NCBI RefSeq assembly: GCF_000010625.1
Contig: NC_010296.1
Coordinates: 2,520,001 to 2,552,000, forward strand
From: Microcystis aeruginosa NIES-843
Lineage (GTDB): Bacteria > Cyanobacteriota > Cyanobacteriia > Cyanobacteriales > Microcystaceae
Reading direction: 5' to 3'
Length of the DNA: 32,000 nt
This document shows, piece by piece, positions 1,745-18,727 of the stretch (position 1 is its first letter; every line of letters starts with the position of its first letter). A program made the position numbers and the translations under genes. A model generated the notes under the pieces. That model did no database searches, was not told the DNA's origin, and worked only from the letters and a program-made list of their open reading frames with translations.

Positions 1745-1939
1745 TAGTTACCAGATTTTTTCTCCCCCCGAACGCTTACTAAAAATCATCCATTTGTGAG
1801 AGTAGATCATCCATTGTATAAACGTGGAACTCTGCCTAAACTGAAGCTAAAGGGAATCAAACAATTCTTTGTTCATTCTTTAAGAACTATTCGTTGTCTC
1901 TACAGACTGCTATATTATTGATTGGAGAACACACCTACA

Positions 1940-4900
1940 ATGTCTGCTCAATCCTCAACCTCTAGCCTAACTGCTTTACAAAAAACACCGATCGCTATTA
2001 TTGGAATGTCGGCCTTATTTGCTAAAGCCAAGAATTTACAGGAATATTGGCAAAATATTCTCGGTAAAGTGAATGGAATCACTGAAGTGCCAGAAAGTGC
2101 CTGGAATTTAGAAGATTACTATGATCCAGACCCGAAAGCACCAGATAAGACCTATGGTAAATGGGGGGGCTTTTTGCCTAAAATTGATTTTGACCCCTTA
2201 GAATTTGGTCTGCCACCTGATACGTTAGAAGCTTTAGATTCGGCTCATTTACTTGGTTTAGTGATGGCTAAACAAGCTTTAGAAGATGCGGGTTATAACC
2301 AAGGAAAAGAGTTTAATCGAGAAACAACAGGGGTTATTTTAGGAGGAAGCGGACTCTGGAAAAGCATTACTCCCTTAACCAGTCGTCTGCAATATCCTCT
2401 CTGGAAGAAAATTTGCCAAAAAAGTGGTTTATCTCAAGAACAAACCGACAAAATTATCGAAAATATGAAGGCGGCCTATGTGCCTTGGCAAGAAAATTCT
2501 TTCCCCGGTATGTTACCAAACGTCGTAGCAGGTCGTATTACTAATCGCTTTGATTTAGGAGGAACTAATTGTGTGGTGGATGCAGCCTGTGCGAGTTCCT
2601 TAAGTGCTTTAAAAATGGCGATCAGTGAATTAATTGAAGGCCGTTGTGACATGATGCTTACAGGGGGCTTTGACACGGATAATTCCATCCTTAATTATAT
2701 GTGTTTTAGCAAAACTCCAGCTTTTTCTAAGAAAGATTGTCTCAATCCCTTTGATGCTACCTCCGATGGCATGATGGTAGGGGAAGGATTGGGAATGCTG
2801 GTGATTAAACGGCTTGAGGATGCAGAACGAGACGGAGATCGCATCTATGCAGTAATTAAAGGCATCGGGACTGCTAGTGATGGTCGTTTTAAAAGTATCT
2901 ATGCACCGCGTCCTGAAGGTCAAGTTAGAGCCTTACGGCGTGCCTATCAAGAGGCGGGATTTTCTCCCGCTACCTTGGGGTTAGTTGAGGCCCATGGTAC
3001 TGGAACACCAGCAGGAGATTTTTGTGAATTTACAGCCCTGAATGAGGTTTTTAGCGAAAATAACGCAGAAAAGCAAACGATTGCTCTGGGTAGTGTCAAA
3101 TCTCAAATTGGTCATACCAAGGCGGCGGCGGGTGCTGCAAGTTTAATTAAAACGACTTTGGCCTTACATCATAAAATTCTTCCTGCTACCATTAACATTA
3201 CCGAACCCAACCCTAAATTTAAGATTGAAGACTCGCCTTTTTATCTCAATACTGAAACCCGTCCTTGGTTGTCCAAAGGAGAGACACCGAGACGAGCCGG
3301 GGTTAGTTCCTTTGGTTTTGGGGGAACTGATTATCATGTGGTGTTAGAAGAATATACGCCCAAATTACCCCAAGGAGAAAATCGAATTCATCACCGTCCC
3401 CAATCAATTTTACTCTGGGGTCAAAATCCTGAAGAATTAAGACAAACTTGTCAAAAAGCTCTAGAACAGTTGCAATCTCCCCAAGGGTCACAAGTTTATA
3501 TTGAACTACAAAATCAAAGCAAATCGGCTCAACTTCCCTTAAAGGTTGCTAGAGTGGGCTTTGTTGCGACTTCCTTGGCGGAAGCTATTAAATTACTGCA
3601 AGCAGCCGTTAAACAGTTGCAAAAACAGCCTCAAGCAGAGGCATGGGAACATCCCCAAGGTATTTATTACCGTAAGACGGGGTTATTACTGGAGGGAAAA
3701 GTCGTAGCATTGTTCCCCGGCCAAGGTTCTCAATACCTGAATATGGGTCGAGAAATTGCCCTAAATTTGCCAGAAATCCAAACCGCTTATCAAAAATTGG
3801 ACATATTGAGAGCTAAAGCGGGTTTAACGCCCCTTTCAGCAGGAGTATTTCCGATTCCTACCTTTAACGAGGTGGACGAAAAACGGCAAACCTCTTTACT
3901 GCAACGGACGGAAAATGCTCAACCTGCGATCGGGGCTTTCAGTGTAGGACTGTATAAAACGTTGCAAAAGACGGGATTTAAGCCAAATTTTGTGGCCGGT
4001 CACAGTTTTGGGGAATTAACCGCACTCTGGTCCGCGGGCGTTTTCACAGACGACGATTATTATTACTTGATCCAAGCTAGAGGCCAGGCCATGGCCGCAC
4101 CGAAAGGAGCCACCCCTCAAGGGGCGATGTTAGCGGTGACGGGGAAAGTATCTCAGATAGCGCAATGGGTTGAAGGAATGGCCAATGTGCAGATTGCTAA
4201 CTATAATGCACCTGAACAGGTGGTATTATCGGGATTAGCCTCAGAAATTGCCACTATTGAGAAGATTTTAAGCTCTCAAGGCTATCAGGTTACGCCTTTA
4301 CCCGTGTCTGCTGCTTTTCATACTTCTCTAGTACGTCATGCTAGTCAACCCTTTGGGAAAGCGTTGGATCAAGTGACGTTTCATGCGCCCCAACTTCCGG
4401 TTTATGCTAATGTGACGGCGGCCCCTTATCCCAAAGATTTATCAGGGATGCGTCAGCTTTTAGAAGCTCAGTTGTTGAATTCGGTTCAGTTTGTCCAACA
4501 AATTGAAAATATTTATGCTCAAGGCGGATATTGCTTTGTGGAAATTGGACCGCGCCAAATTCTCACTAACTTAGTTAAACAGATATTAGGCGATCGCCCT
4601 CATCTGGCCATTGCGCTCAACCCCAGTCGGCAAAAGGACAGTGATATTCAACTGTCACAAGGAGTAATGCAGCTTCGAGTTTTAGGTTTACCGTTAAACG
4701 ATCTGGAAAATGCAGCTTTGACGGTGAAGACTTCCTCAAGCAAACGCAAAGGTATGACCCTTAAGCTGAATGCAACCAACTACATCAGCGATAAAACCAA
4801 AGCTTTGATCGGAGCTGCATTACAACCTGATTCACCTGCGGAAATAGAACCGTCAGTTGATTCCCAAACGGTTGAATCTAAGTGTGAGGAAGTGAAAGGG

Positions 4901-5761
4901 TCGGAAAACGAGGAAATTTTAGCCTCTATTCCTTCCGTCAACCCTTATCCTTCTGATTCTCAGCCTCTTTCAGAGGAAATTCCAACACTCAATTTATCTA
5001 TTGTTTCTCAAGATCAAACTGTAACCATGACTATGAACAACGCTATTTCTAACAACATCAACCCTATTTTACAAGCATTCTACCAATATCAACAGAGTCT
5101 TGCCAAGGTTCACGAAGAGTACATTAAACATCAATCCCAGAGTTTTCAATCAGTGTTGCAGTTATTCAAACAAAAAGAGATGACAGTAGTTGCTCAAATT
5201 GACGAACTCTCTACTCCTGCTGCTTCTTCGGAGAATTCAAAATTTGATCGGCCAAATTCAGAGGTTTCCTCTGTTAGTTTTCCTGATCCTACCCCTTTTA
5301 AGTCTGAACCTCAGCCCTTACGAACTCTAGAACCTCAACCTTTAAACATTGCACCTCAACCCTTACCGACTCCCGAACCTGAACCCGTTCACATTTCCCC
5401 CATTGTCAACTATTTAGAACCTCGTCAACCCATTGCACCCATCTCTACACCTGAACCTGTGTCAGGAGTGAGCGAACCTTCTTTAGACTCCATTCAAGAT
5501 GATGCACTGAGTCAAGCCTTATTAGAGGTTGTCAGTGAAAAAACAGGCTATCCTACGGAAATGTTGGCATTAGAAATGGATTTAGAGGCAGATTTAGGCA
5601 TTGACTCGATCAAACGGGTAGAAATCATGGGAAGTCTGCAAGAAGCTTTCTCTGGGTTGCCCAAACTTAGCCCTGAAGCGTTAGCAGAAAAACGTACCCT
5701 AGCCCACATTGTTCAGTACTTGAGGGAGAAAATGATGGTGACAGAAAAAAAAATAGCTTAG
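1940..5761 (+). CDS. PfaA/HglE-like megasynthase subunit: KS - AT - Pro-rich linker - single ACP
   Basis: KS motifs: VVDAACASSL (Cys codon 2588-2590), VEAHGTGT, SQIGHTKAAAG. AT motifs: FPGQGSQY, GHSFGE (Ser codon 4004-4006), AAFHT. There is one carrier motif, DLGIDSIKRVE (Ser codon 5606-5608). The ATG at 1940, with GGAG about 13 nt upstream, is preferred over the TTG at 1922 used by the track. Confidence 0.9.
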   Translation: MSAQSSTSSLTALQKTPIAIIGMSALFAKAKNLQEYWQNILGKVNGITEVPESAWNLEDYYDPDPKAPDKTYGKWGGFLPKIDFDPLEFGLPPDTLEALDSAHLLGLVMAKQALEDAGYNQGKEFNRETTGVILGGSGLWKSITPLTSRLQYPLWKKICQKSGLSQEQTDKIIENMKAAYVPWQENSFPGMLPNVVAGRITNRFDLGGTNCVVDAACASSLSALKMAISELIEGRCDMMLTGGFDTDNSILNYMCFSKTPAFSKKDCLNPFDATSDGMMVGEGLGMLVIKRLEDAERDGDRIYAVIKGIGTASDGRFKSIYAPRPEGQVRALRRAYQEAGFSPATLGLVEAHGTGTPAGDFCEFTALNEVFSENNAEKQTIALGSVKSQIGHTKAAAGAASLIKTTLALHHKILPATINITEPNPKFKIEDSPFYLNTETRPWLSKGETPRRAGVSSFGFGGTDYHVVLEEYTPKLPQGENRIHHRPQSILLWGQNPEELRQTCQKALEQLQSPQGSQVYIELQNQSKSAQLPLKVARVGFVATSLAEAIKLLQAAVKQLQKQPQAEAWEHPQGIYYRKTGLLLEGKVVALFPGQGSQYLNMGREIALNLPEIQTAYQKLDILRAKAGLTPLSAGVFPIPTFNEVDEKRQTSLLQRTENAQPAIGAFSVGLYKTLQKTGFKPNFVAGHSFGELTALWSAGVFTDDDYYYLIQARGQAMAAPKGATPQGAMLAVTGKVSQIAQWVEGMANVQIANYNAPEQVVLSGLASEIATIEKILSSQGYQVTPLPVSAAFHTSLVRHASQPFGKALDQVTFHAPQLPVYANVTAAPYPKDLSGMRQLLEAQLLNSVQFVQQIENIYAQGGYCFVEIGPRQILTNLVKQILGDRPHLAIALNPSRQKDSDIQLSQGVMQLRVLGLPLNDLENAALTVKTSSSKRKGMTLKLNATNYISDKTKALIGAALQPDSPAEIEPSVDSQTVESKCEEVKGSENEEILASIPSVNPYPSDSQPLSEEIPTLNLSIVSQDQTVTMTMNNAISNNINPILQAFYQYQQSLAKVHEEYIKHQSQSFQSVLQLFKQKEMTVVAQIDELSTPAASSENSKFDRPNSEVSSVSFPDPTPFKSEPQPLRTLEPQPLNIAPQPLPTPEPEPVHISPIVNYLEPRQPIAPISTPEPVSGVSEPSLDSIQDDALSQALLEVVSEKTGYPTEMLALEMDLEADLGIDSIKRVEIMGSLQEAFSGLPKLSPEALAEKRTLAHIVQYLREKMMVTEKKIA

Positions 5762-5817
5762 TTGTTACCTCTACCCAGTCTAACCATCGAAAACACGGTG
5801 ATATTGGACGTTATCAA

Positions 5818-6537
5818 ATGAAACTGAAGCCCCTTGCTGCACCAGATTATTGGGATTTTCCCTCAACCCCTGATCAAACCTGTTTGGTGACCGATGATGG
5901 TTCATCTACTACTGCCCAAGTTGCTCAAAGTTTGCTAAACCAAGGCTGGCAAGTTGTGGTTCTCAGTTTCCCTCAATTCCTTATTCCTGCTTGTTCTTCT
6001 CTTCCTGCGGGGGTTCGACATTTTGTTCTCAATCATTTAAGTGAAGAACATTTACAATCACAATTGGGAGATATATTTAAAACTTGTGGACTGATCGGCA
6101 CATTTATTCATTTACATCCTCTCCTTCAGGGGTTTAATCAAGATCAAGAGACTTCAATTAATTCTGATCAAGCGATTGTTAAACAAGTGTTTTTACTAGC
6201 CAAACATCTTAAATCTTCTCTGACGCAAGCGGCCAGTCAAGGACGCAGTTGTTTTCTCAGCTTAACCCGTTTAGATGGAGAATTTGGTCTCAGTGGAAAA
6301 CGAGAATTTAGCCCTATTAGTGGCGGTTTATTTGGCTTAACGAAAACCTTAAATCTAGAGTGGGAATCGGTCTTCTGTCGCGCTCTAGATATTAGTCCCG
6401 ACTTAGATGAAATGACAACGGCTCAAATTGTTTTAGCTGAATTGCATGATCCTAATAGCTTAATTCAAGAGGTGGGTTATACCCCAAAAGGTCGAATGAC
6501 TTTGACTTGTGAATTAGCTTCTTTGAGCAGTAATTAG
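5818..6537 (+). CDS. Pseudo-KR (structural Rossmann-like subdomain with a degenerate NADPH loop) as a separate ORF
   Basis: LVTDDGSSTTAQVAQSLLNQGWQVVVL replaces a TGGxGxxG loop. IGTFIHLHP, FLSLTRLDGEFG and GGLFGLTKTLNLEW follow SDR strand order but lack the S/Y/K/N catalytic residues. Its position, between the ACP and the catalytic KR, matches the pseudo-KR of PfaA-type proteins (recollection, not a search). Its frame is open upstream to 5677. Confidence 0.55.
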   Translation: MKLKPLAAPDYWDFPSTPDQTCLVTDDGSSTTAQVAQSLLNQGWQVVVLSFPQFLIPACSSLPAGVRHFVLNHLSEEHLQSQLGDIFKTCGLIGTFIHLHPLLQGFNQDQETSINSDQAIVKQVFLLAKHLKSSLTQAASQGRSCFLSLTRLDGEFGLSGKREFSPISGGLFGLTKTLNLEWESVFCRALDISPDLDEMTTAQIVLAELHDPNSLIQEVGYTPKGRMTLTCELASLSSN

Positions 6538-6650
6538 GGAAAAGTTAATAGTTAGAATAAAATTAGCTGGGCGCGAGCATTGCGCCCCTACAGAATTATA
6601 TTTATTCAAATAAATTACGGTATAAATTCTGATTTTTAGCTAATCTATAC

Positions 6651-6685
6651 TAACTATTAACTATCAACTATCAACTATCAACTAA
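6651..6685. repeat. Heptamer tandem array (YAACTAT)x5
   Basis: TAACTAT TAACTAT CAACTAT CAACTAT CAACTAA, read directly, in the spacer between the pseudo-KR and KR-DH ORFs. Confidence 0.9.
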
Positions 6686-6691
6686 CACGGT

Positions 6692-8458
6692 ATGTTACCC
6701 ATGATTAATGATACTCAACTTAATTCATCTTCGGTGGTTATTGTCAGTGGTGGTGGCCGAGGAATTACGGCTCAATGCGTTATCTATTTGGCGCAACAAT
6801 ATCATTGTAAATTTATTTTATTAGGTCGTTCGCAAATTTTATATCCTGAACCTGAATGGAGTCTTTCTTGTCAAGATGAGTCTCAGTTAAAAAAGCAAAT
6901 TATGCAACATTTAACAACTCAAAATGAAAAACCAACTCCGAAAAAAGTTCAAGCACTGTATCAACAACTCTGTCAAAGTCGTGAAATTAAGCAAACCTTA
7001 TCAGAGATTGAAAAAGTAGGAGGAAAAGCCGAGTATTGCAGTGTTAATGTTACCGATTCACAGCAACTAAAAGCAACTTTAAGACCGATTATTCAACGTT
7101 GGGGAGAGATTACGGGCATTATTCATGGTGCGGGAACGTTAGCAGATAAATTAATTGAAAACAAAACTGAACAGGATTTCGATAAGGTTTATAGTGTCAA
7201 AATTGATGGGTTAAATAGTTTATTAGGTTCCCTAGAAGTTAACCGATTAAAATTTATTGCCTTATTTTCTTCTTTTGTTTCATTTTATGGCAATATCGGT
7301 CAATCTGACTATTCTTTAGCTAACGAAATTTTGAACAAATATGCTTATTTACTTCAACAAAAATATCCTAAATGTCATGTTGTTTCTATTGGGTGGGGTC
7401 CTTGGGATGGGGGAATGGTGACACCACAGCTTAAACAGTTGTTTGAGCAGCAAAATATTAAGGTTATTCCTCAACAAACAGGGGCGCAAATGTTAGCGGA
7501 AGAATTAACCCAAACTCAAGCTAAAACCCCTCAGATTATTGTCATGAGCAACCCTATTTCTCCTTCTCCTAAACTGGTTACACCGCAAAAGCATAGTTAC
7601 CGTTTATATCGTCGGTTGACGTTACGAGGAAACCCTTTCGTTTATGATCATGTCATTGGGGGAAATGCAGTTTTACCTGCGATGTGTGCGTTAGCATGGA
7701 TCACTAATAGTTGCGAACAACTTTATCAAGGATATCGTTTTTTAAGTTGTCATAACTATCAGGTGCTTAAAGGAGTTGTCTTTGATAAAAGTTTAGCTAA
7801 TTTGTATTGTTTGGATCTGACTGAAGTTGAGAAAACAGAAGATGAAATTAAATTTGAAGCCTTAATTTGGAGTGAAACCGCTAAAGGAATTCCCCTTTAT
7901 CATTATCGGGCGATTATTAATATTACTAAACAAGTAATAGCTGAGAGAAAACTTGAGGAAAGTATTCAGCCTGTCACGGAATCTTTCCTTAATTTACAAC
8001 CCTATCAAGCAGGAGTTCTTTTTCATCAGCCCAGATTTCAAGGAATTAAGAAAATCTTAGAAATTAATAACAACGAACTTCTTTTTAACTGTTACTTACC
8101 TAAAATTTCTACACAAGATCAAGGACAGTTTAGCGTTCAATCCTTTAATTCTTATACGGCTGATCTCTTGTTTCAATGTCTTTTAGTTTGGGTCAGAAAA
8201 CACTACAATTCGGGTAGTTTACCCCTAAAACTAAATGAGCTTGAGCAGTTTAGTTCCCTCCCTTTTAATCAAGAATTTTGGATAAAATTATCCATTAATG
8301 AACATAGTGATACTAAGGTAATTGCTAATGCACTTGCTTATCATTCTCAAGGGAAAATTTATTTAGAAGCAACTAATATGGAGGTTACTTTGAGTTCTTG
8401 TCTTAATGTTTTGTTTCTTAACAATACGGTGAATTCATCGAATACTGTTTGCTTGTAA
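6692..8458 (+). CDS. Catalytic ketoreductase + PKS-type dehydratase di-domain protein
   Basis: KR: VVIVSGGGRGITAQC (NADPH loop), IIHGAGT, FSSFVSFYGNIGQSDYSLANEILN (S...Y...N). DH: YDHVIGGNAVLPAM (HxxxGxxxxP, His codon 7649-7651) and a downstream ADLLFQ (DxxxQ). Confidence 0.8.
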   Translation: MLPMINDTQLNSSSVVIVSGGGRGITAQCVIYLAQQYHCKFILLGRSQILYPEPEWSLSCQDESQLKKQIMQHLTTQNEKPTPKKVQALYQQLCQSREIKQTLSEIEKVGGKAEYCSVNVTDSQQLKATLRPIIQRWGEITGIIHGAGTLADKLIENKTEQDFDKVYSVKIDGLNSLLGSLEVNRLKFIALFSSFVSFYGNIGQSDYSLANEILNKYAYLLQQKYPKCHVVSIGWGPWDGGMVTPQLKQLFEQQNIKVIPQQTGAQMLAEELTQTQAKTPQIIVMSNPISPSPKLVTPQKHSYRLYRRLTLRGNPFVYDHVIGGNAVLPAMCALAWITNSCEQLYQGYRFLSCHNYQVLKGVVFDKSLANLYCLDLTEVEKTEDEIKFEALIWSETAKGIPLYHYRAIINITKQVIAERKLEESIQPVTESFLNLQPYQAGVLFHQPRFQGIKKILEINNNELLFNCYLPKISTQDQGQFSVQSFNSYTADLLFQCLLVWVRKHYNSGSLPLKLNELEQFSSLPFNQEFWIKLSINEHSDTKVIANALAYHSQGKIYLEATNMEVTLSSCLNVLFLNNTVNSSNTVCL

Positions 8459-8503: not shown

Positions 8504-11500
8504 ATGAAACCTTCCAAATTAGCGATCGCTGGAATAAGTGGCTTCTTTAATCAACTGTTAACCAGTCAACAACTATCAGCTTTAATTTATCAAGGAAACT
8601 CCCTTGATTATTCTAACAAACCGATCAGTGATCATTCTTGGTCTATCCTATCAAAGATGTCTGATCAAGGGTTAAAAGATTGTACTTGTAAGATAGGAAA
8701 AAAAGTCGCTTTAATTACTGCTAATAATATTAGCAACAATCAAGAAACTGAGCTTAAAAATATTAGTTATCAATTGGAAAGATTATGGAATTGTTCCATT
8801 GTTCCCTTTCAATTAACCCAAGTATCTGATTCTTTATTAAAGTCTCTCGAATTAGCCCAAATTCTCTTAACTGCCAAAGAAGTTGATACAGTCATTATTA
8901 GTGCGCTTAATACGGATTCTGAGTCTATTATTGGCGGAGCTTTAATCCTCAAAGATTATGAAACAATCCAAAACAATAATAGTACGCTTTTTTACGGGAT
9001 TATTGATAGCTTTAGTAAAATAGTTAACCCCTTATCTTCTCCATCAGTTGCGATTAAACAAAGTTGTCAGCAAGCATTTAAAAATGCTAAGATTCACCCC
9101 TCAAATATTGGTTATTTAGCTGTTTCCTCAAGAGAGATAGATCAAGGGTTATTAGAAGCTTATTATGCTAATCATAATAACCTAACTTGTGCAGTTGGAA
9201 CAGTCCAAGAGAATAATAATAACTTAGGGATAACTGAAGATTTAATTAGCTTAATTAAAACAGCACTTTGCTTAAAAAATCGTTATCTTCCTGCTTCCGC
9301 TCAACTGTTAACTTCTAATCTTACTCAAGAATGGCAAAATAGTTCTTTTTATCTACCTGATGTATCACTTCCTTGGTTTCTTGAAAAAGGACAAGAAAAA
9401 CGCTATGCTGCGCTTAATTTAGTCAATCAAAATAATACTTATAGTCATTTAATTTTATCGGAAGCAACTCCTCAAAGTACACCCAATAATGGCTATTTAC
9501 CCTATGCACCATTTTATCTATTTCCCCTCGCTGGAAATGATAGTTCATCTTTACAAAGTCAGCTTGATAACTTAACCCATAGTATTGAAAACAGTTTCTC
9601 CTTACCCCATCTTGCCAAAGAGAATTTTATTCAGTTTCAACAGAATTCTCAGTCTCCTTATGTTCTAGCAATTGTTGGGAATAACAAAGAAGCTTTGCAA
9701 AAGGAAATTAAACAGGCTAAAAAAGGAATTGATAAAGCCTTTCACACAGGAAAGCCGTGGAAAAGTCCCCAAGGAAGTTATTTTACCCCTAAACGGTTAG
9801 GAAAAGTGGGTAAAGTCGCTTTTGTTTATCCCGGTGCGTTTAACTCCTATTTAGGAATGGGAAGAAATCTTTTTCAATTATTCCCTAAATTATGGGAGAG
9901 AGCAGAGAGTTTAATTAGTGATCCTGCTACCTTTTTTCAAGCAAACTCTCTTTATCCTCGCCGTCAATCTCCCCTTTCTAAACAAGACTTAGAAACCCTA
10001 GAAACTCAATTCATTGCTAACCCTTTATCTCTCTTAGAAACGGGAACGGGTTTTGCGGTTTTATTCACCGAAATTATGCAGAAATATTTTAAAATTAAAC
10101 CTGATGCTGCCTTCGGTTATAGCATGGGAGAAAGTACCATGATGTATTCATTAGGAGTCTGGCCAAATGCGGATCAAGGAAGTCGATTTGTTCATTCTTC
10201 TCCCCTATTTAAAACCCGTTTAATGGGAGCTAAACAAGCCGTTGCAGAATCTTGGGGTCAACCGATAGATGAAAATTCATGGAGTAGTTATGTTTTAATG
10301 GCTACAGCTGAAGCAGTTCAGGAATGTCTAAAAACAGAAAGTAAGGTTTATTTAACCCATATTAATACCCCTCAAGAAGTTGCGATCGCAGGAGATTCTC
10401 AAGGTTGTTTACGGGTGATTGAAAAATTACAATGTGATCGGTTTCGTTCGCCTTCTGATATGGTTTTACATTGTGAAGTTATGCAATCAGAATACAATGA
10501 GTTTCTTAAGCTAAATACGGTGACAATGGGAACAGCACCTGATACTATTTTTTATTCCTCTTCTCATTATGATTCTCTGACCTTAGAACAAGAGAAAATT
10601 GGTGATCATTTAAGTCAAGGAATGTGTAAAATGTTAGATTTTCCTCGCTTAATTGAACGCACTTATCAAGACGGAGTGAAAATCTTTCTAGAATTAGGAT
10701 CAGGAGGAAGTTGTTCTCGTTGGATATCAGAAACTCTTGGTCAAAAAGAGCATCTTGCATTGTGTATTAATCGTCGAGGTGCTGATGATTTAGCGACCAT
10801 TATTAAGATGTTAGCACAATTAGTCAGTCATGGGGTAGAACTAGACTTATCCCCTCTTTATTTAACAGATGAAGCAGAAACCTTAGAGGCGATTTTTAAG
10901 ACAGTGTTAACCACAGCACCCAAAGCTAATATTGAACCCCAAACTGAGCAACAAAATTCAATTATTCGAGAAAATACTGCTTCTCAAAAAGTCGCTGTTT
11001 TAGTCGCTTCTTCTACTCAACTTCTTTCCCAAGTTCCAACCATTTCTACGGTTGATCATTCAAGAACAAGCGTTATTTCTTCTCATCCTAAAACCGTTAA
11101 ACCTTGTTTATTTGATCAACCTGAGATCCTCGAATTTATTGAAGGTAAAGTCTCTAAGGTTTTTGGTCAAGAATATGAACCCATTGATCATTATACCCAA
11201 CGAGTCAGAATGCCGTCTCCTCCCTTTTTGTTCGTCAGTCGGGTGACTCAATTAGAAGGAAAATTAGGTGATTATAAATCAGGTTTCATCGAAACAGAAT
11301 ATGATGTACCAGAAGATGCTTGGTATGCAGTAGATGGTCAATTAACGGTAGGAATTTGTAAAGAAGCCGGCCACGGACTCCTGATGCTATTAAGTTATAT
11401 CGGGACAGATTTTGAAAATCAAGGAAAACGCTCTTTCCGTTTATTAGATTTATCTGCAACCTTCTTATTTGAACAACCCGAAAACGTTAAGTTGTTACGG

Positions 11501-17977: not shown

Positions 17978-18727
17978 ATGCTCTCAAAACATCTAGTAAC
18001 TCTATTAGGATTAACCTCTGTAATCGCTCTTAATCCTGTTCTTTCTGTTCATGCCGAACCTCAAGTTTATTTAGAAGTTGAGGGAAAAGAAAGCCTAGAA
18101 CTAAATACTAATACTTTAGCTATTTTAGAAAATATTGGATTAACACTGAGCGATGTTGAAAGTACCGCAACGCCTGCCCCCGGCTTTTCCATTGGTTCCG
18201 TTTTATTGCCTCCCAATTCTGACCCCAATGTTCGAGGAACGACTTATACTTTCCTCTATGATGATGACCCTGTTCTTTATGTTCCCTTGGGCGGAACAGA
18301 AGAGTTTTTAGGAACGTTTACCTTTGAGGTAGATACCACCAAGTTGAATGGACTAGGAACACAATTCACGATTGGCAATTTTTCCAATTCTTTTGACGAA
18401 GATTTTAATTTTTTTGTGACTGATACAGCCAATACAGGTTTGCAAGTCTTTGATGTTGCATCATCAGGTATTCCTAATATTGATCTTAATACTCTGACTT
18501 TCGTGCTTGAAGGAATTGAATTATTCTTTTCTCAAGAATTCAGTGACTTGTTAGTAAATGCAGGGGCTACTCAGTCAGTAGCGGGATTAAAATTCATTGA
18601 TGGTAGAGCCGATCGTTCTTTGATGTTAGTCTCTGCTTCAACTCCTGAACCCTCATCAATTTTAGCTCTAATTCTGTTAGCAGGAGGCGGTATTATTGGC
18701 GGAATTAGACAAAATCAAAAAAAATAA
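17978..18727 (+). CDS. Secreted PEP-CTERM sorting-domain protein
   Basis: Signal peptide MLSKHLVTLLGLTSVIALNPVLSVHAEP. The C-terminus is STPEPSSILALILLAGGGIIGGIRQNQKK, i.e. PEP motif + TM helix + basic tail. AGGAG lies upstream. Confidence 0.8.
   Translation: MLSKHLVTLLGLTSVIALNPVLSVHAEPQVYLEVEGKESLELNTNTLAILENIGLTLSDVESTATPAPGFSIGSVLLPPNSDPNVRGTTYTFLYDDDPVLYVPLGGTEEFLGTFTFEVDTTKLNGLGTQFTIGNFSNSFDEDFNFFVTDTANTGLQVFDVASSGIPNIDLNTLTFVLEGIELFFSQEFSDLLVNAGATQSVAGLKFIDGRADRSLMLVSASTPEPSSILALILLAGGGIIGGIRQNQKK

Follow-up and report, generated by a model that had tools for sequence, protein, structure and literature searches.

Runs of nine A or T residues are known to slip efficiently in vivo, and a 2016 recoding review (PMC5009743) describes dnaX of T. 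thermophilus as a gene that uses such slippage. An A9 cassette from Mg-chelatase supports 40% frameshifting in E. coli reporters (PMC3711429), while approximately 20% of the product of C. rodentium tssM1, which carries an A11 run, is shifted, with both products needed in the right ratio (PMC4256274). E. coli dnaX harbors the heptamer A_AAA_AAG together with an upstream Shine–Dalgarno (SD) sequence and a downstream stem-loop. A run of nine adenines (A9) is found in Microcystis aeruginosa NIES-843, at positions 5745–5753 of a 32,000-nucleotide (nt) stretch of contig NC_010296.1 (assembly GCF_000010625.1, positions 2,520,001 to 2,552,000; hereafter, the window). It lies at the junction between an open reading frame (ORF) for a ketosynthase–acyltransferase–acyl carrier protein (KS-AT-ACP) subunit and an ORF for a pseudo-ketoreductase (ψKR). 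This tract may well be a conserved programmed slippage site, with RNA polymerase as the slipping enzyme, at the ACP/ψKR boundary of a PfaA-like megasynthase of the heterocyst-glycolipid (hgl) or polyunsaturated fatty acid (PUFA) synthase type. The shifted fusion of the two ORFs is, on comparative grounds, probably made and used.

As in tssM1 of C. rodentium and tssM3 of Yersinia pseudotuberculosis (PMC4256274), a poly-A run here precedes a premature stop, and A residues added by slippage would restore the frame to a C-terminal domain. In the tssM pair, the genome of one species encodes the short form and that of the other the long form, resembling the in-frame and out-of-frame alleles described below. 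However, tssM1 is an enterobacterial secretion-system membrane protein with an A11 run and two known instances, whereas the present tract is nine or ten A’s long across cyanobacterial orders, would serve both shift directions and join polyketide synthase domains, and is known from sequence. T. thermophilus dnaX shares with it a nine-residue run matching the length of the RNA–DNA hybrid, nearby stops in the alternative frames, and, as proposed here, a product ratio fixed by the tract; according to the review (PMC5009743), the genome there encodes the long product and slippage yields the short one, the reverse of what is proposed here. With E. coli dnaX the locus has in common a heptamer of Lys codons phased as X_XXY_YYZ, as well as two products from one gene, which here are proposed. 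In contrast to E. coli dnaX, the Microcystis clade lacks a conserved stem-loop or SD sequence, and sister lineages need a +1 shift; two distant groups of orthologues, with A8 or C_CCT_TTC followed by a hairpin, do look like E. coli dnaX. The Mg-chelatase cluster of the GeneTack survey (PMC3711429) also has a conserved poly-A run at an ORF junction of a biosynthetic enzyme, although of a different family.

All features of the locus are on the forward strand, and positions are those of the window. ORF2 (1922–5761), the PfaA/HglE_A-like KS-AT-ACP subunit, probably begins at the ATG at 1941 rather than at the TTG at 1922, and its 3′ end reads GAA AAA AAA ATA GCT TAG, i.e., ...MMVTEKKIA*, with the stop codon at 5759–5761. 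The surrounding sequence, 5740–5761, is gacag AAAAAAAAA tagcttag (GACAG-A9-TAGCTTAG), so that the tract stands as GAA AAA AAA A in the ORF2 frame and presents an X_XXY_YYZ heptamer (GA A AAA AAA) in zero-frame phase. ORF3 (5818–6537) has its ATG at 5818, yet its frame is already open from 5677, 141 nt upstream, and holds no ATG, GTG, or TTG between 5677 and 5817. ORF3 is in the −1 frame of ORF2 (1922 mod 3 = 2 versus 5818 mod 3 = 1), and translation across the junction in the −1 frame gives ...EKK|NSLVVTSTQSNHRKHGDIGRYQMKLKPLAAPDYW. The A9 run, the end of ORF2, the opening of the ORF3 frame at 5677, the −1 relation, and the junction product had been read in the first-pass annotation and are correct on re-reading.

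The segment between the tract and the ATG of ORF3, 5752–5817, encodes the linker NSLVVTSTQSNHRKHGDIGRYQ in the ORF3 frame, its conserved part being 5791–5817 (KHGDIGRYQ). Because that frame is devoid of ATG, GTG, and TTG from 5677 to 5817, the linker can be reached only through a shift at the tract. The tract is followed by TAG CT TAG (5754–5761), in which the first TAG (5754–5756) stops the +1 frame and the second stops ORF2. Thus, every non-fusing frame ends at once. Both TAGs are invariant in an alignment of seven lineages, while the two bases between them vary. Runs of at least nine A’s are expected by base composition at 0.35 per 32 kb, and the one at 5745–5753 is the only one in the window. 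Such a run is not rare on its own, but chance comes nowhere near explaining why it recurs at this one boundary between domains in dozens of orthologous loci.

Pfam domains assign KS, AT, and PP-binding (ACP) domains to ORF2 and KR and PS-DH domains to ORF4 (6692–8458), an HglG-like protein that presumably serves as the catalytic partner of the ψKR, while a Pfam search with ORF3 gives no match. The NCBIfam PfaA model TIGR02813 (2582 positions) is covered by ORF2 from 4 to 1078 (1413 bits), by ORF3 from 1756 to 1977 (E = 7.5e-33), and by ORF4 from 1991 to 2582. The three ORFs are thus collinear with one PfaA polypeptide, and ORF3 corresponds to the region just before the catalytic KR, a non-catalytic, HglF-like domain of the short-chain dehydrogenase/reductase (SDR) kind with weak similarity to SDR/FabG (E = 0.01). 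The KS-AT-ACP / pseudo-KR assignments proposed earlier therefore hold. PfaA of marine PUFA synthases and HglE_A-HglF-HglG (PMC11804610) have the same domain order, KS-AT-ACP-ψKR-KR-DH, as ORF2 to ORF4; however, PfaA is one polypeptide, whereas here the domains are spread over three ORFs, of which ORF2 and ORF3 can be joined only by a shift. Genes for PfaC-like and PfaD-like proteins, an MFS transporter, and an amine oxidase follow ORF4. The 154-nt, AT-rich spacer between ORF3 and ORF4 (6538–6691) contains no slippery site, and the split between these two ORFs is an ordinary intergenic one. This spacer harbors a GC hairpin, GGGCGC..GCGCCC (about 6569–6587), and tandem AACTATC heptads (about 6658–6686) just 5′ of the ORF4 start.

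For comparison, 110 related loci (designated by L numbers) were assembled from one scan of a genome collection, one scan of a metagenome collection, and look-ups of proteins retrieved by homology search; Anabaena PCC 7120 is not among them. Loci were classed by the frame of the ACP motif DSIKRVEI relative to that of the ψKR match, and the evidence consists of consensus assemblies. Three genome-collection loci and seven metagenome contigs are 97–99% identical to the window in ORF3, and A9 and the −1 relation are present in all 11 Microcystis copies, the window included. The same holds for six other lineages of the Microcystis clade (Cyanothece BG0011, Crocosphaera, GCA_014696565.1, and three metagenomic relatives), all of which read (G)CAG-A9-TAG-YY-TAG, with ψKR identities to the window of 67–73% in the four that were scored. 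A junction-spanning query against a collection of 5.8 billion proteins retrieves mostly tandem-ACP proteins and no Microcystis-level protein across the junction, matches of at least 95% identity covering at most 45% of the query.

Across the loci of the cyanobacterial type as a whole, 30 distinct out-of-frame junctions carry A9 (27) or A10 (3). An initial 25 of these (24 with A9, one with A10) span the Microcystis type, Iphinoe, Coleofasciculus, Calothrix, Mastigocoleus, Rivularia, Chrysosporum, Nostoc, and Anabaena; the other five are L106–L108 (A9), L109 (A10, −1), and L110 from Lyngbya aestuarii (A10, +1). Across the 25, the commonest base reaches a mean frequency of just 0.50–0.55 in the 30 flanking columns to either side. 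A9/A10 stays invariant even between lineages that share just 50–59% ψKR identity. Since AAA accounts for only 0.71 of the Lys codons in these genes and the tract occurs in three codon phases (GAA AAA AAA A, AAA AAA AAA, and GTA AAA AAA AAG), the conserved entity appears to be the nucleotide run and not a set of codons, and codon choice does not seem to explain it. In this orthologue comparison the run is conserved beyond codon and amino acid conservation, which is a hallmark of transcriptional slippage sites. In the cyanobacterial-type orthologues the homopolymer is also kept and the overlapping frame stays open; orthologues lacking both had been named as the outcome that would contradict recoding.

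A complete hgl island is represented by L105 from Anabaena sp. UHCC 0253, in which transporter genes are followed by hglE_A, hglF, hglG, hglD, hglC, hglA, and hglB, the names being assigned by domain content and by reference to the island in PMC11804610. The hglE_A/hglF junction of this locus reads GGT GAA AAA AAA AAC (A10 at 10004–10013), with hglF in the +1 frame. No canonical start codon exists between the tract and the conserved N-terminal motif of hglF; the annotated GTG start directly precedes the tract and abuts GGAGG.

The frame relation is labile in these comparisons, while the tract is not. The Microcystis type, the compact-hgl type, L005, and L010 have the ψKR in the −1 frame. Loci of the Nostoc type read GCT-A9-TGC with the ψKR in the +1 frame, such that fusion would need A8 or A11, and the +1 relation recurs in L105 and L110. 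L068 and L069 nest within the Nostoc-type clade (ψKR 80–83% identical to that of L008) and read GCT-G-A9-TGC/TTC; an extra G outside the tract places them in the −1 relation with A9 kept, and fusion would need A10. The shifted products of the Nostoc type and of L068/L069 would both be ...KKNA(S/L)AN.... A single shift direction is therefore not shared by all orthologues. This +1 relation in sister lineages, which goes beyond the first-pass annotation, does not appear to be covered by a purely ribosomal −1 model on A_AAA_AAA.

In-frame alleles complete the series. L080 and L082 carry A10 in frame, are 84% identical to the A9 locus L017, and encode DEKKNFDRSLEVF, which is the predicted fusion existing as a genomic allele in a relative. 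These loci stand beside the out-of-frame A9 of L017, L074, and L075, showing that tract length changes over evolutionary time. Other in-frame loci are those of Moorena (A8), L031/L072 (A9), and L103/L104 (A10), and across the family A8, A9, and A10 are each found both in frame and out of frame.

In every out-of-frame locus the ψKR frame is open from the tract, often exactly from it, as CTG-A9 creates a TGA just before. This alternative frame is contiguous with the upstream part in homologues, as evidenced by the opening at 5677, the collinearity with PfaA, the fused orthologues, and the A10 allele. Among 27 scored loci, 15, including L105, offer no ATG, GTG, or TTG on the way from the tract to the conserved KLxxLxxPD motif; start codons, if present, occupy inconsistent positions, and the annotated lengths of ORF3 homologues scatter from 197 to 292 aa. 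In the Microcystis clade, pairwise differences in the nine codons before Met-5818 (xHGDIGRYQ) number 30, 23, and 91 at codon positions 1, 2, and 3, respectively, from which the segment upstream of Met-5818 appears to evolve as coding sequence, though it has no canonical start of its own. The position of Met-5818 itself is M, V, or I among close relatives and is not a conserved start, a second point beyond the first-pass annotation. A [NDT]H.I.R motif just 5′ of KLxxLxxPD is common to in-frame fused proteins and to the shifted frame of split loci, and the spacing from the ACP motif to the ψKR in shifted products falls within the range of in-frame orthologues. Independent initiation of ORF3 is poorly supported by these patterns.

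RNA structure around the tract is not conserved in the Microcystis clade. RNAalifold on the seven lineages yields no conserved structure after the tract (3 pairs, −0.08 kcal/mol), and none is found before it (z = +1.3), as would suit polymerase slippage that is independent of context, on runs of at least nine. Hairpins predicted from single sequences begin no closer than about 15 nt behind the tract and are not common to the lineages. One of these, AACGYCCAA..UUGGRCGUU, lies partly over the HGDIGRY codons immediately upstream of the ATG and occurs in the window (5778–5808), in L056 (2957–2995), and in L058 (2957–2995); between the latter two, one position differs on both sides and still pairs, but the hairpin is not conserved in L060 or L106–L108. 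The downstream hairpins of the window, L056, and L058 were therefore dropped as a general stimulator, as they are not conserved across the seven-lineage alignment. With respect to ribosome-binding sequences, a GAGGGAG in the window ends 16 nt before the tract and is not conserved. In the two +1 groups examined (the Nostoc type and L105, GGGAGGTG), GAGG or GGAGG is found 1–3 nt upstream of the tract, where the −1 sisters L068/L069 have GTGG. We take this spacing to fit the prfB rule for +1 stimulation.

Distant orthologues of the Chloroflexi type differ in their junctions. Most have no tract and are fused in frame, and a minority is frame-split with other slippery-looking motifs. L021/L081 (about 5937–5956), L073, L077, L078, L079, L026, L086, and L089 have no A tract and a −1 split at the same ACP/ψKR boundary; their upstream frame ends ...C CCT TTC, with a stop 0–2 codons later, and in the fused relatives L042 and L098 the in-frame sequence is ETPRPFDPGVEQG. 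In L026 (5915–5990; z = −3.1), L086 (2397–2475), and L089 (2415–2490), a perfect hairpin, CCCCACCT..AGGTGGGG, follows 6–7 nt downstream, and the combination of C_CCT_TTC and hairpin in these three has what looks like the classic anatomy of −1 programmed ribosomal frameshifting. A C6 run was rejected as the slip site of this ‘PRPF*’ group, as L073 has CCCCAC and is nevertheless frame-split; the conserved element is C_CCT_TTC. A further group carries A8 in the context CCT GAA AAA AAA GGx TRA with the ψKR in the −1 frame: L055 (5880–5950), L100 (2434–2500), L101 (290–360), and L102 (492–560), as well as L032 (5123). A 13-bp hairpin lies 5 nt after the A8 tract (−25.9 kcal/mol, z = −3.7 in L055), and three of the four loci have a TAATG/TGATG stop-start overlap. 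From their sequences, both coupling and frameshifting are possible in this A8 group.

From the cyanobacterial comparisons we infer the occurrence of slippage, RNA polymerase as its agent, and the roles of the two products. The nine-A run matches the RNA–DNA hybrid in length, and realignment of RNA polymerase on it would generate a mixed population of mRNAs. Faithful A9 transcripts would yield the short KS-AT-ACP protein ending EKKIA*, while A8 and A11 transcripts would terminate as EKK* or EKKK*. A10 (and also A7) transcripts would be read through as ...EKK-NSLVVTSTQSNHRKHGDIGRYQ-MKLKPL..., tethering the ψKR to the ACP as in single-chain PfaA. The short form would be the major product and the KS-AT-ACP-ψKR fusion the minor one, with their ratio set by the tract, and the ψKR would in turn bring in the KR-DH encoded by the separate ORF4. 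The fusion has a calculated mass of ~170 kDa, versus ~140 kDa for the short form, and is predicted to release the tryptic junction peptide NSLVVTSTQSNHR. RNA polymerase is favored as the agent because the same A9–A10 tract serves both shift directions in sister lineages, because conservation reaches the length of the RNA–DNA hybrid and not that of a heptamer, because the Microcystis clade has no conserved RNA structure around the tract, and because runs of this length are known to slip. A single mechanism producing both insertions and deletions would explain both directions.

Several observations weigh against this reading. The phase of the tract suits a −1 ribosomal shift on A_AAA_AAA in every −1 locus; together with the GAGG/GGAGG sequences of the +1 groups, this makes a ribosomal contribution possible. 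Independent initiation of ORF3 is likewise possible in Microcystis, which has the ATG at 5818, and in three relatives with a GTG 7 codons after the tract, and the ordinary spacer between ORF3 and ORF4 indicates that the family tolerates trans-acting pieces. Finally, in-frame relatives likewise conserve ‘EKK’ at the protein level, and these AT-rich genomes favor AAA, such that codon bias could account for part of the tract conservation. The first of these points leads to recoding that is real but ribosomal, in which tRNA-Lys shifts by −1 or slides on A_AAA_AAA, and shifts by +1 in the Nostoc-type, Anabaena, and Lyngbya loci, again fusing KS-AT-ACP to the ψKR. The canonical xxA AAA AAA phase of the −1 loci speaks for it, as do the SD-like sequences of the +1 groups, with GTGG in their place in L068/L069, and, in more distant orthologues, the hairpins behind the A8 of L055 and L100–L102 and the C_CCT_TTC of L026/L086/L089. 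In the Microcystis clade, however, neither a downstream structure nor an upstream SD sequence is conserved, the hairpins of L056/L058 begin ~15 nt after the tract and are unshared, sister lineages keeping the same A9 would need two mechanisms, and what is conserved is nine to ten A’s rather than seven. On balance, a purely ribosomal shift seems somewhat unlikely.

Alternatively, there is no recoding, and an old 1-nt indel in a Lys-rich linker has split a PfaA-like gene whose second part starts at Met-5818, possibly by coupling to the end of ORF2 translation; the A-run would be nothing more than Lys/Glu codons in an AT-rich genome. Annotation pipelines do report separate proteins of 197–292 aa, EKK(K) is retained at the protein level where the genes are in frame, AAA is the preferred Lys codon (0.71), the ORF3/ORF4 split shows that separate pieces are tolerated in trans, and in some lineages a coupled start could be controlled by the hairpin that lies immediately upstream of the ATG in the window, L056, and L058. 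We regard this explanation as doubtful, given the 15 of 27 loci that offer no canonical start before the N-terminal motif, the M/V/I variation at Met-5818 behind a segment with coding-type substitutions, the invariance of A9/A10 in three codon phases at 50–59% ψKR identity, and a frame that is always open from the tract and has flipped with the tract kept. Toggling of A9 and A10 within populations by replication slippage, with the fusion switched on and off at the DNA level, had been put forward as a phase-variable indel. Length and frame do differ between related taxa, as in L017/L074/L075 and L080/L082, and each of A8, A9, and A10 occurs both in and out of frame; the 11 Microcystis copies, from different strains and metagenomes, are all A9, though consensus assemblies would miss minor subpopulations, whole clades at 67–73% protein identity share A9 and the −1 relation, and the 5.8-billion-protein collection contains no in-frame protein at the Microcystis level. 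For Microcystis this proposal is unsupported and very improbable. A homopolymer sequencing or assembly error, with a true A10 and a single ORF, was also suggested, as homopolymers are error-prone on some platforms. It is refuted beyond reasonable doubt by the same A9 in many independent assemblies and taxa, including the 11 copies and six clade lineages, by the A8 and A10 called elsewhere, and by the Nostoc-type loci, which need the opposite correction and hence argue against a systematic miscall. Programmed frameshifting or RNA-polymerase slippage, the third of the options proposed in the first-pass annotation, is the one that the comparative data support.

Taken over the family, recoding may operate throughout at the ACP/ψKR boundary of hgl/PUFA-synthase-like megasynthases, a generalization for which we see roughly equal grounds for and against. 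The cyanobacterial A9–A10, that of HglE_A-HglF included, would give a fixed mixture of short and long forms whichever frame the genome encodes, and the Chloroflexi would reach the same outcome independently at ribosomal −1 signals (C_CCU_UUC or A8 with a hairpin).

Other homopolymers were noted in the window and its relatives. An A8 run at 18717 was rejected as a further slippery site; it lies in a 249-aa ORF (17978–18727) that ends PEPSSILALILLAGGGIIGGIRQNQKK*, a PEP-CTERM-like sorting tail of which it encodes the Lys-Lys portion, and is innocuous. Upstream of ORF2, a gap of ~600 nt (1330–1940) that follows a condensation-domain ORF (82–1329) contains G/C homopolymers unusual at 41% GC (G8 at 1337, G9 at 1564, C7 at 1652, and C6 at 1764). 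In Nostoc-type loci, a second A8/A9 run is found ~3 kb downstream (L006 8982, L024 8982, L011 9120, L012 8854). It was rejected as a shift site, as it lies in frame inside a PfaC-like KS (DQKQKKVAI) with no frame change, although the run would remain prone to slippage should the polymerase slip at all. Nostoc sp. NMS4 (L020) has a compact hgl-like island in which the ORF after the tract (5929–8457) is an 842-codon ψKR-KR-DH, with hglF and hglG sharing one frame; there, a shift at the tract would restore the full PfaA-like chain.

As a type of recoding, poly-A slippage is established; for these enzymes it does not seem to have been described. In the accessible hgl literature, including a 2025 study of hgl evolution (PMC11804610), hglE_A, hglF, and hglG are handled as individual genes, and frameshifting goes unmentioned. 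The main text of the GeneTack survey (PMC3711429) lists no polyketide or fatty acid synthase among its frameshift clusters, its sole ‘polyketide’ entry being a polyketide cyclase with translational coupling, and the available part of the 2016 recoding review (PMC5009743) mentions neither polyketide, heterocyst, Nostoc, nor Anabaena. The searchable full-text literature, which leaves out most papers in subscription journals, yielded no account of slippage or frameshifting in polyketide synthases, hgl and Pfa included.

If slippage at the tract is real, it would constitute a widely conserved case of bacterial recoding that is neither mobile nor viral, and the −1, +1, and in-frame alleles of a single tract provide a natural experiment for separating polymerase from ribosomal slippage. 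HglF, or the ‘hypothetical protein’ in its place, would be mis-modelled in very many cyanobacterial genomes, with many loci having no real start codon. Heterologous expression of a cloned ORF pair would depend on slippage in the host, and the interpretation of knock-outs and structural models of split-KR docking would be affected. Among the subunits of the heterocyst-glycolipid synthase and of its PUFA-synthase-like relatives there would be a long form that has not been sought. Should recoding prove family-wide, HglF would not be a free-standing protein in many species, and the ratio of short to long subunit would be a design parameter of these megasynthases.

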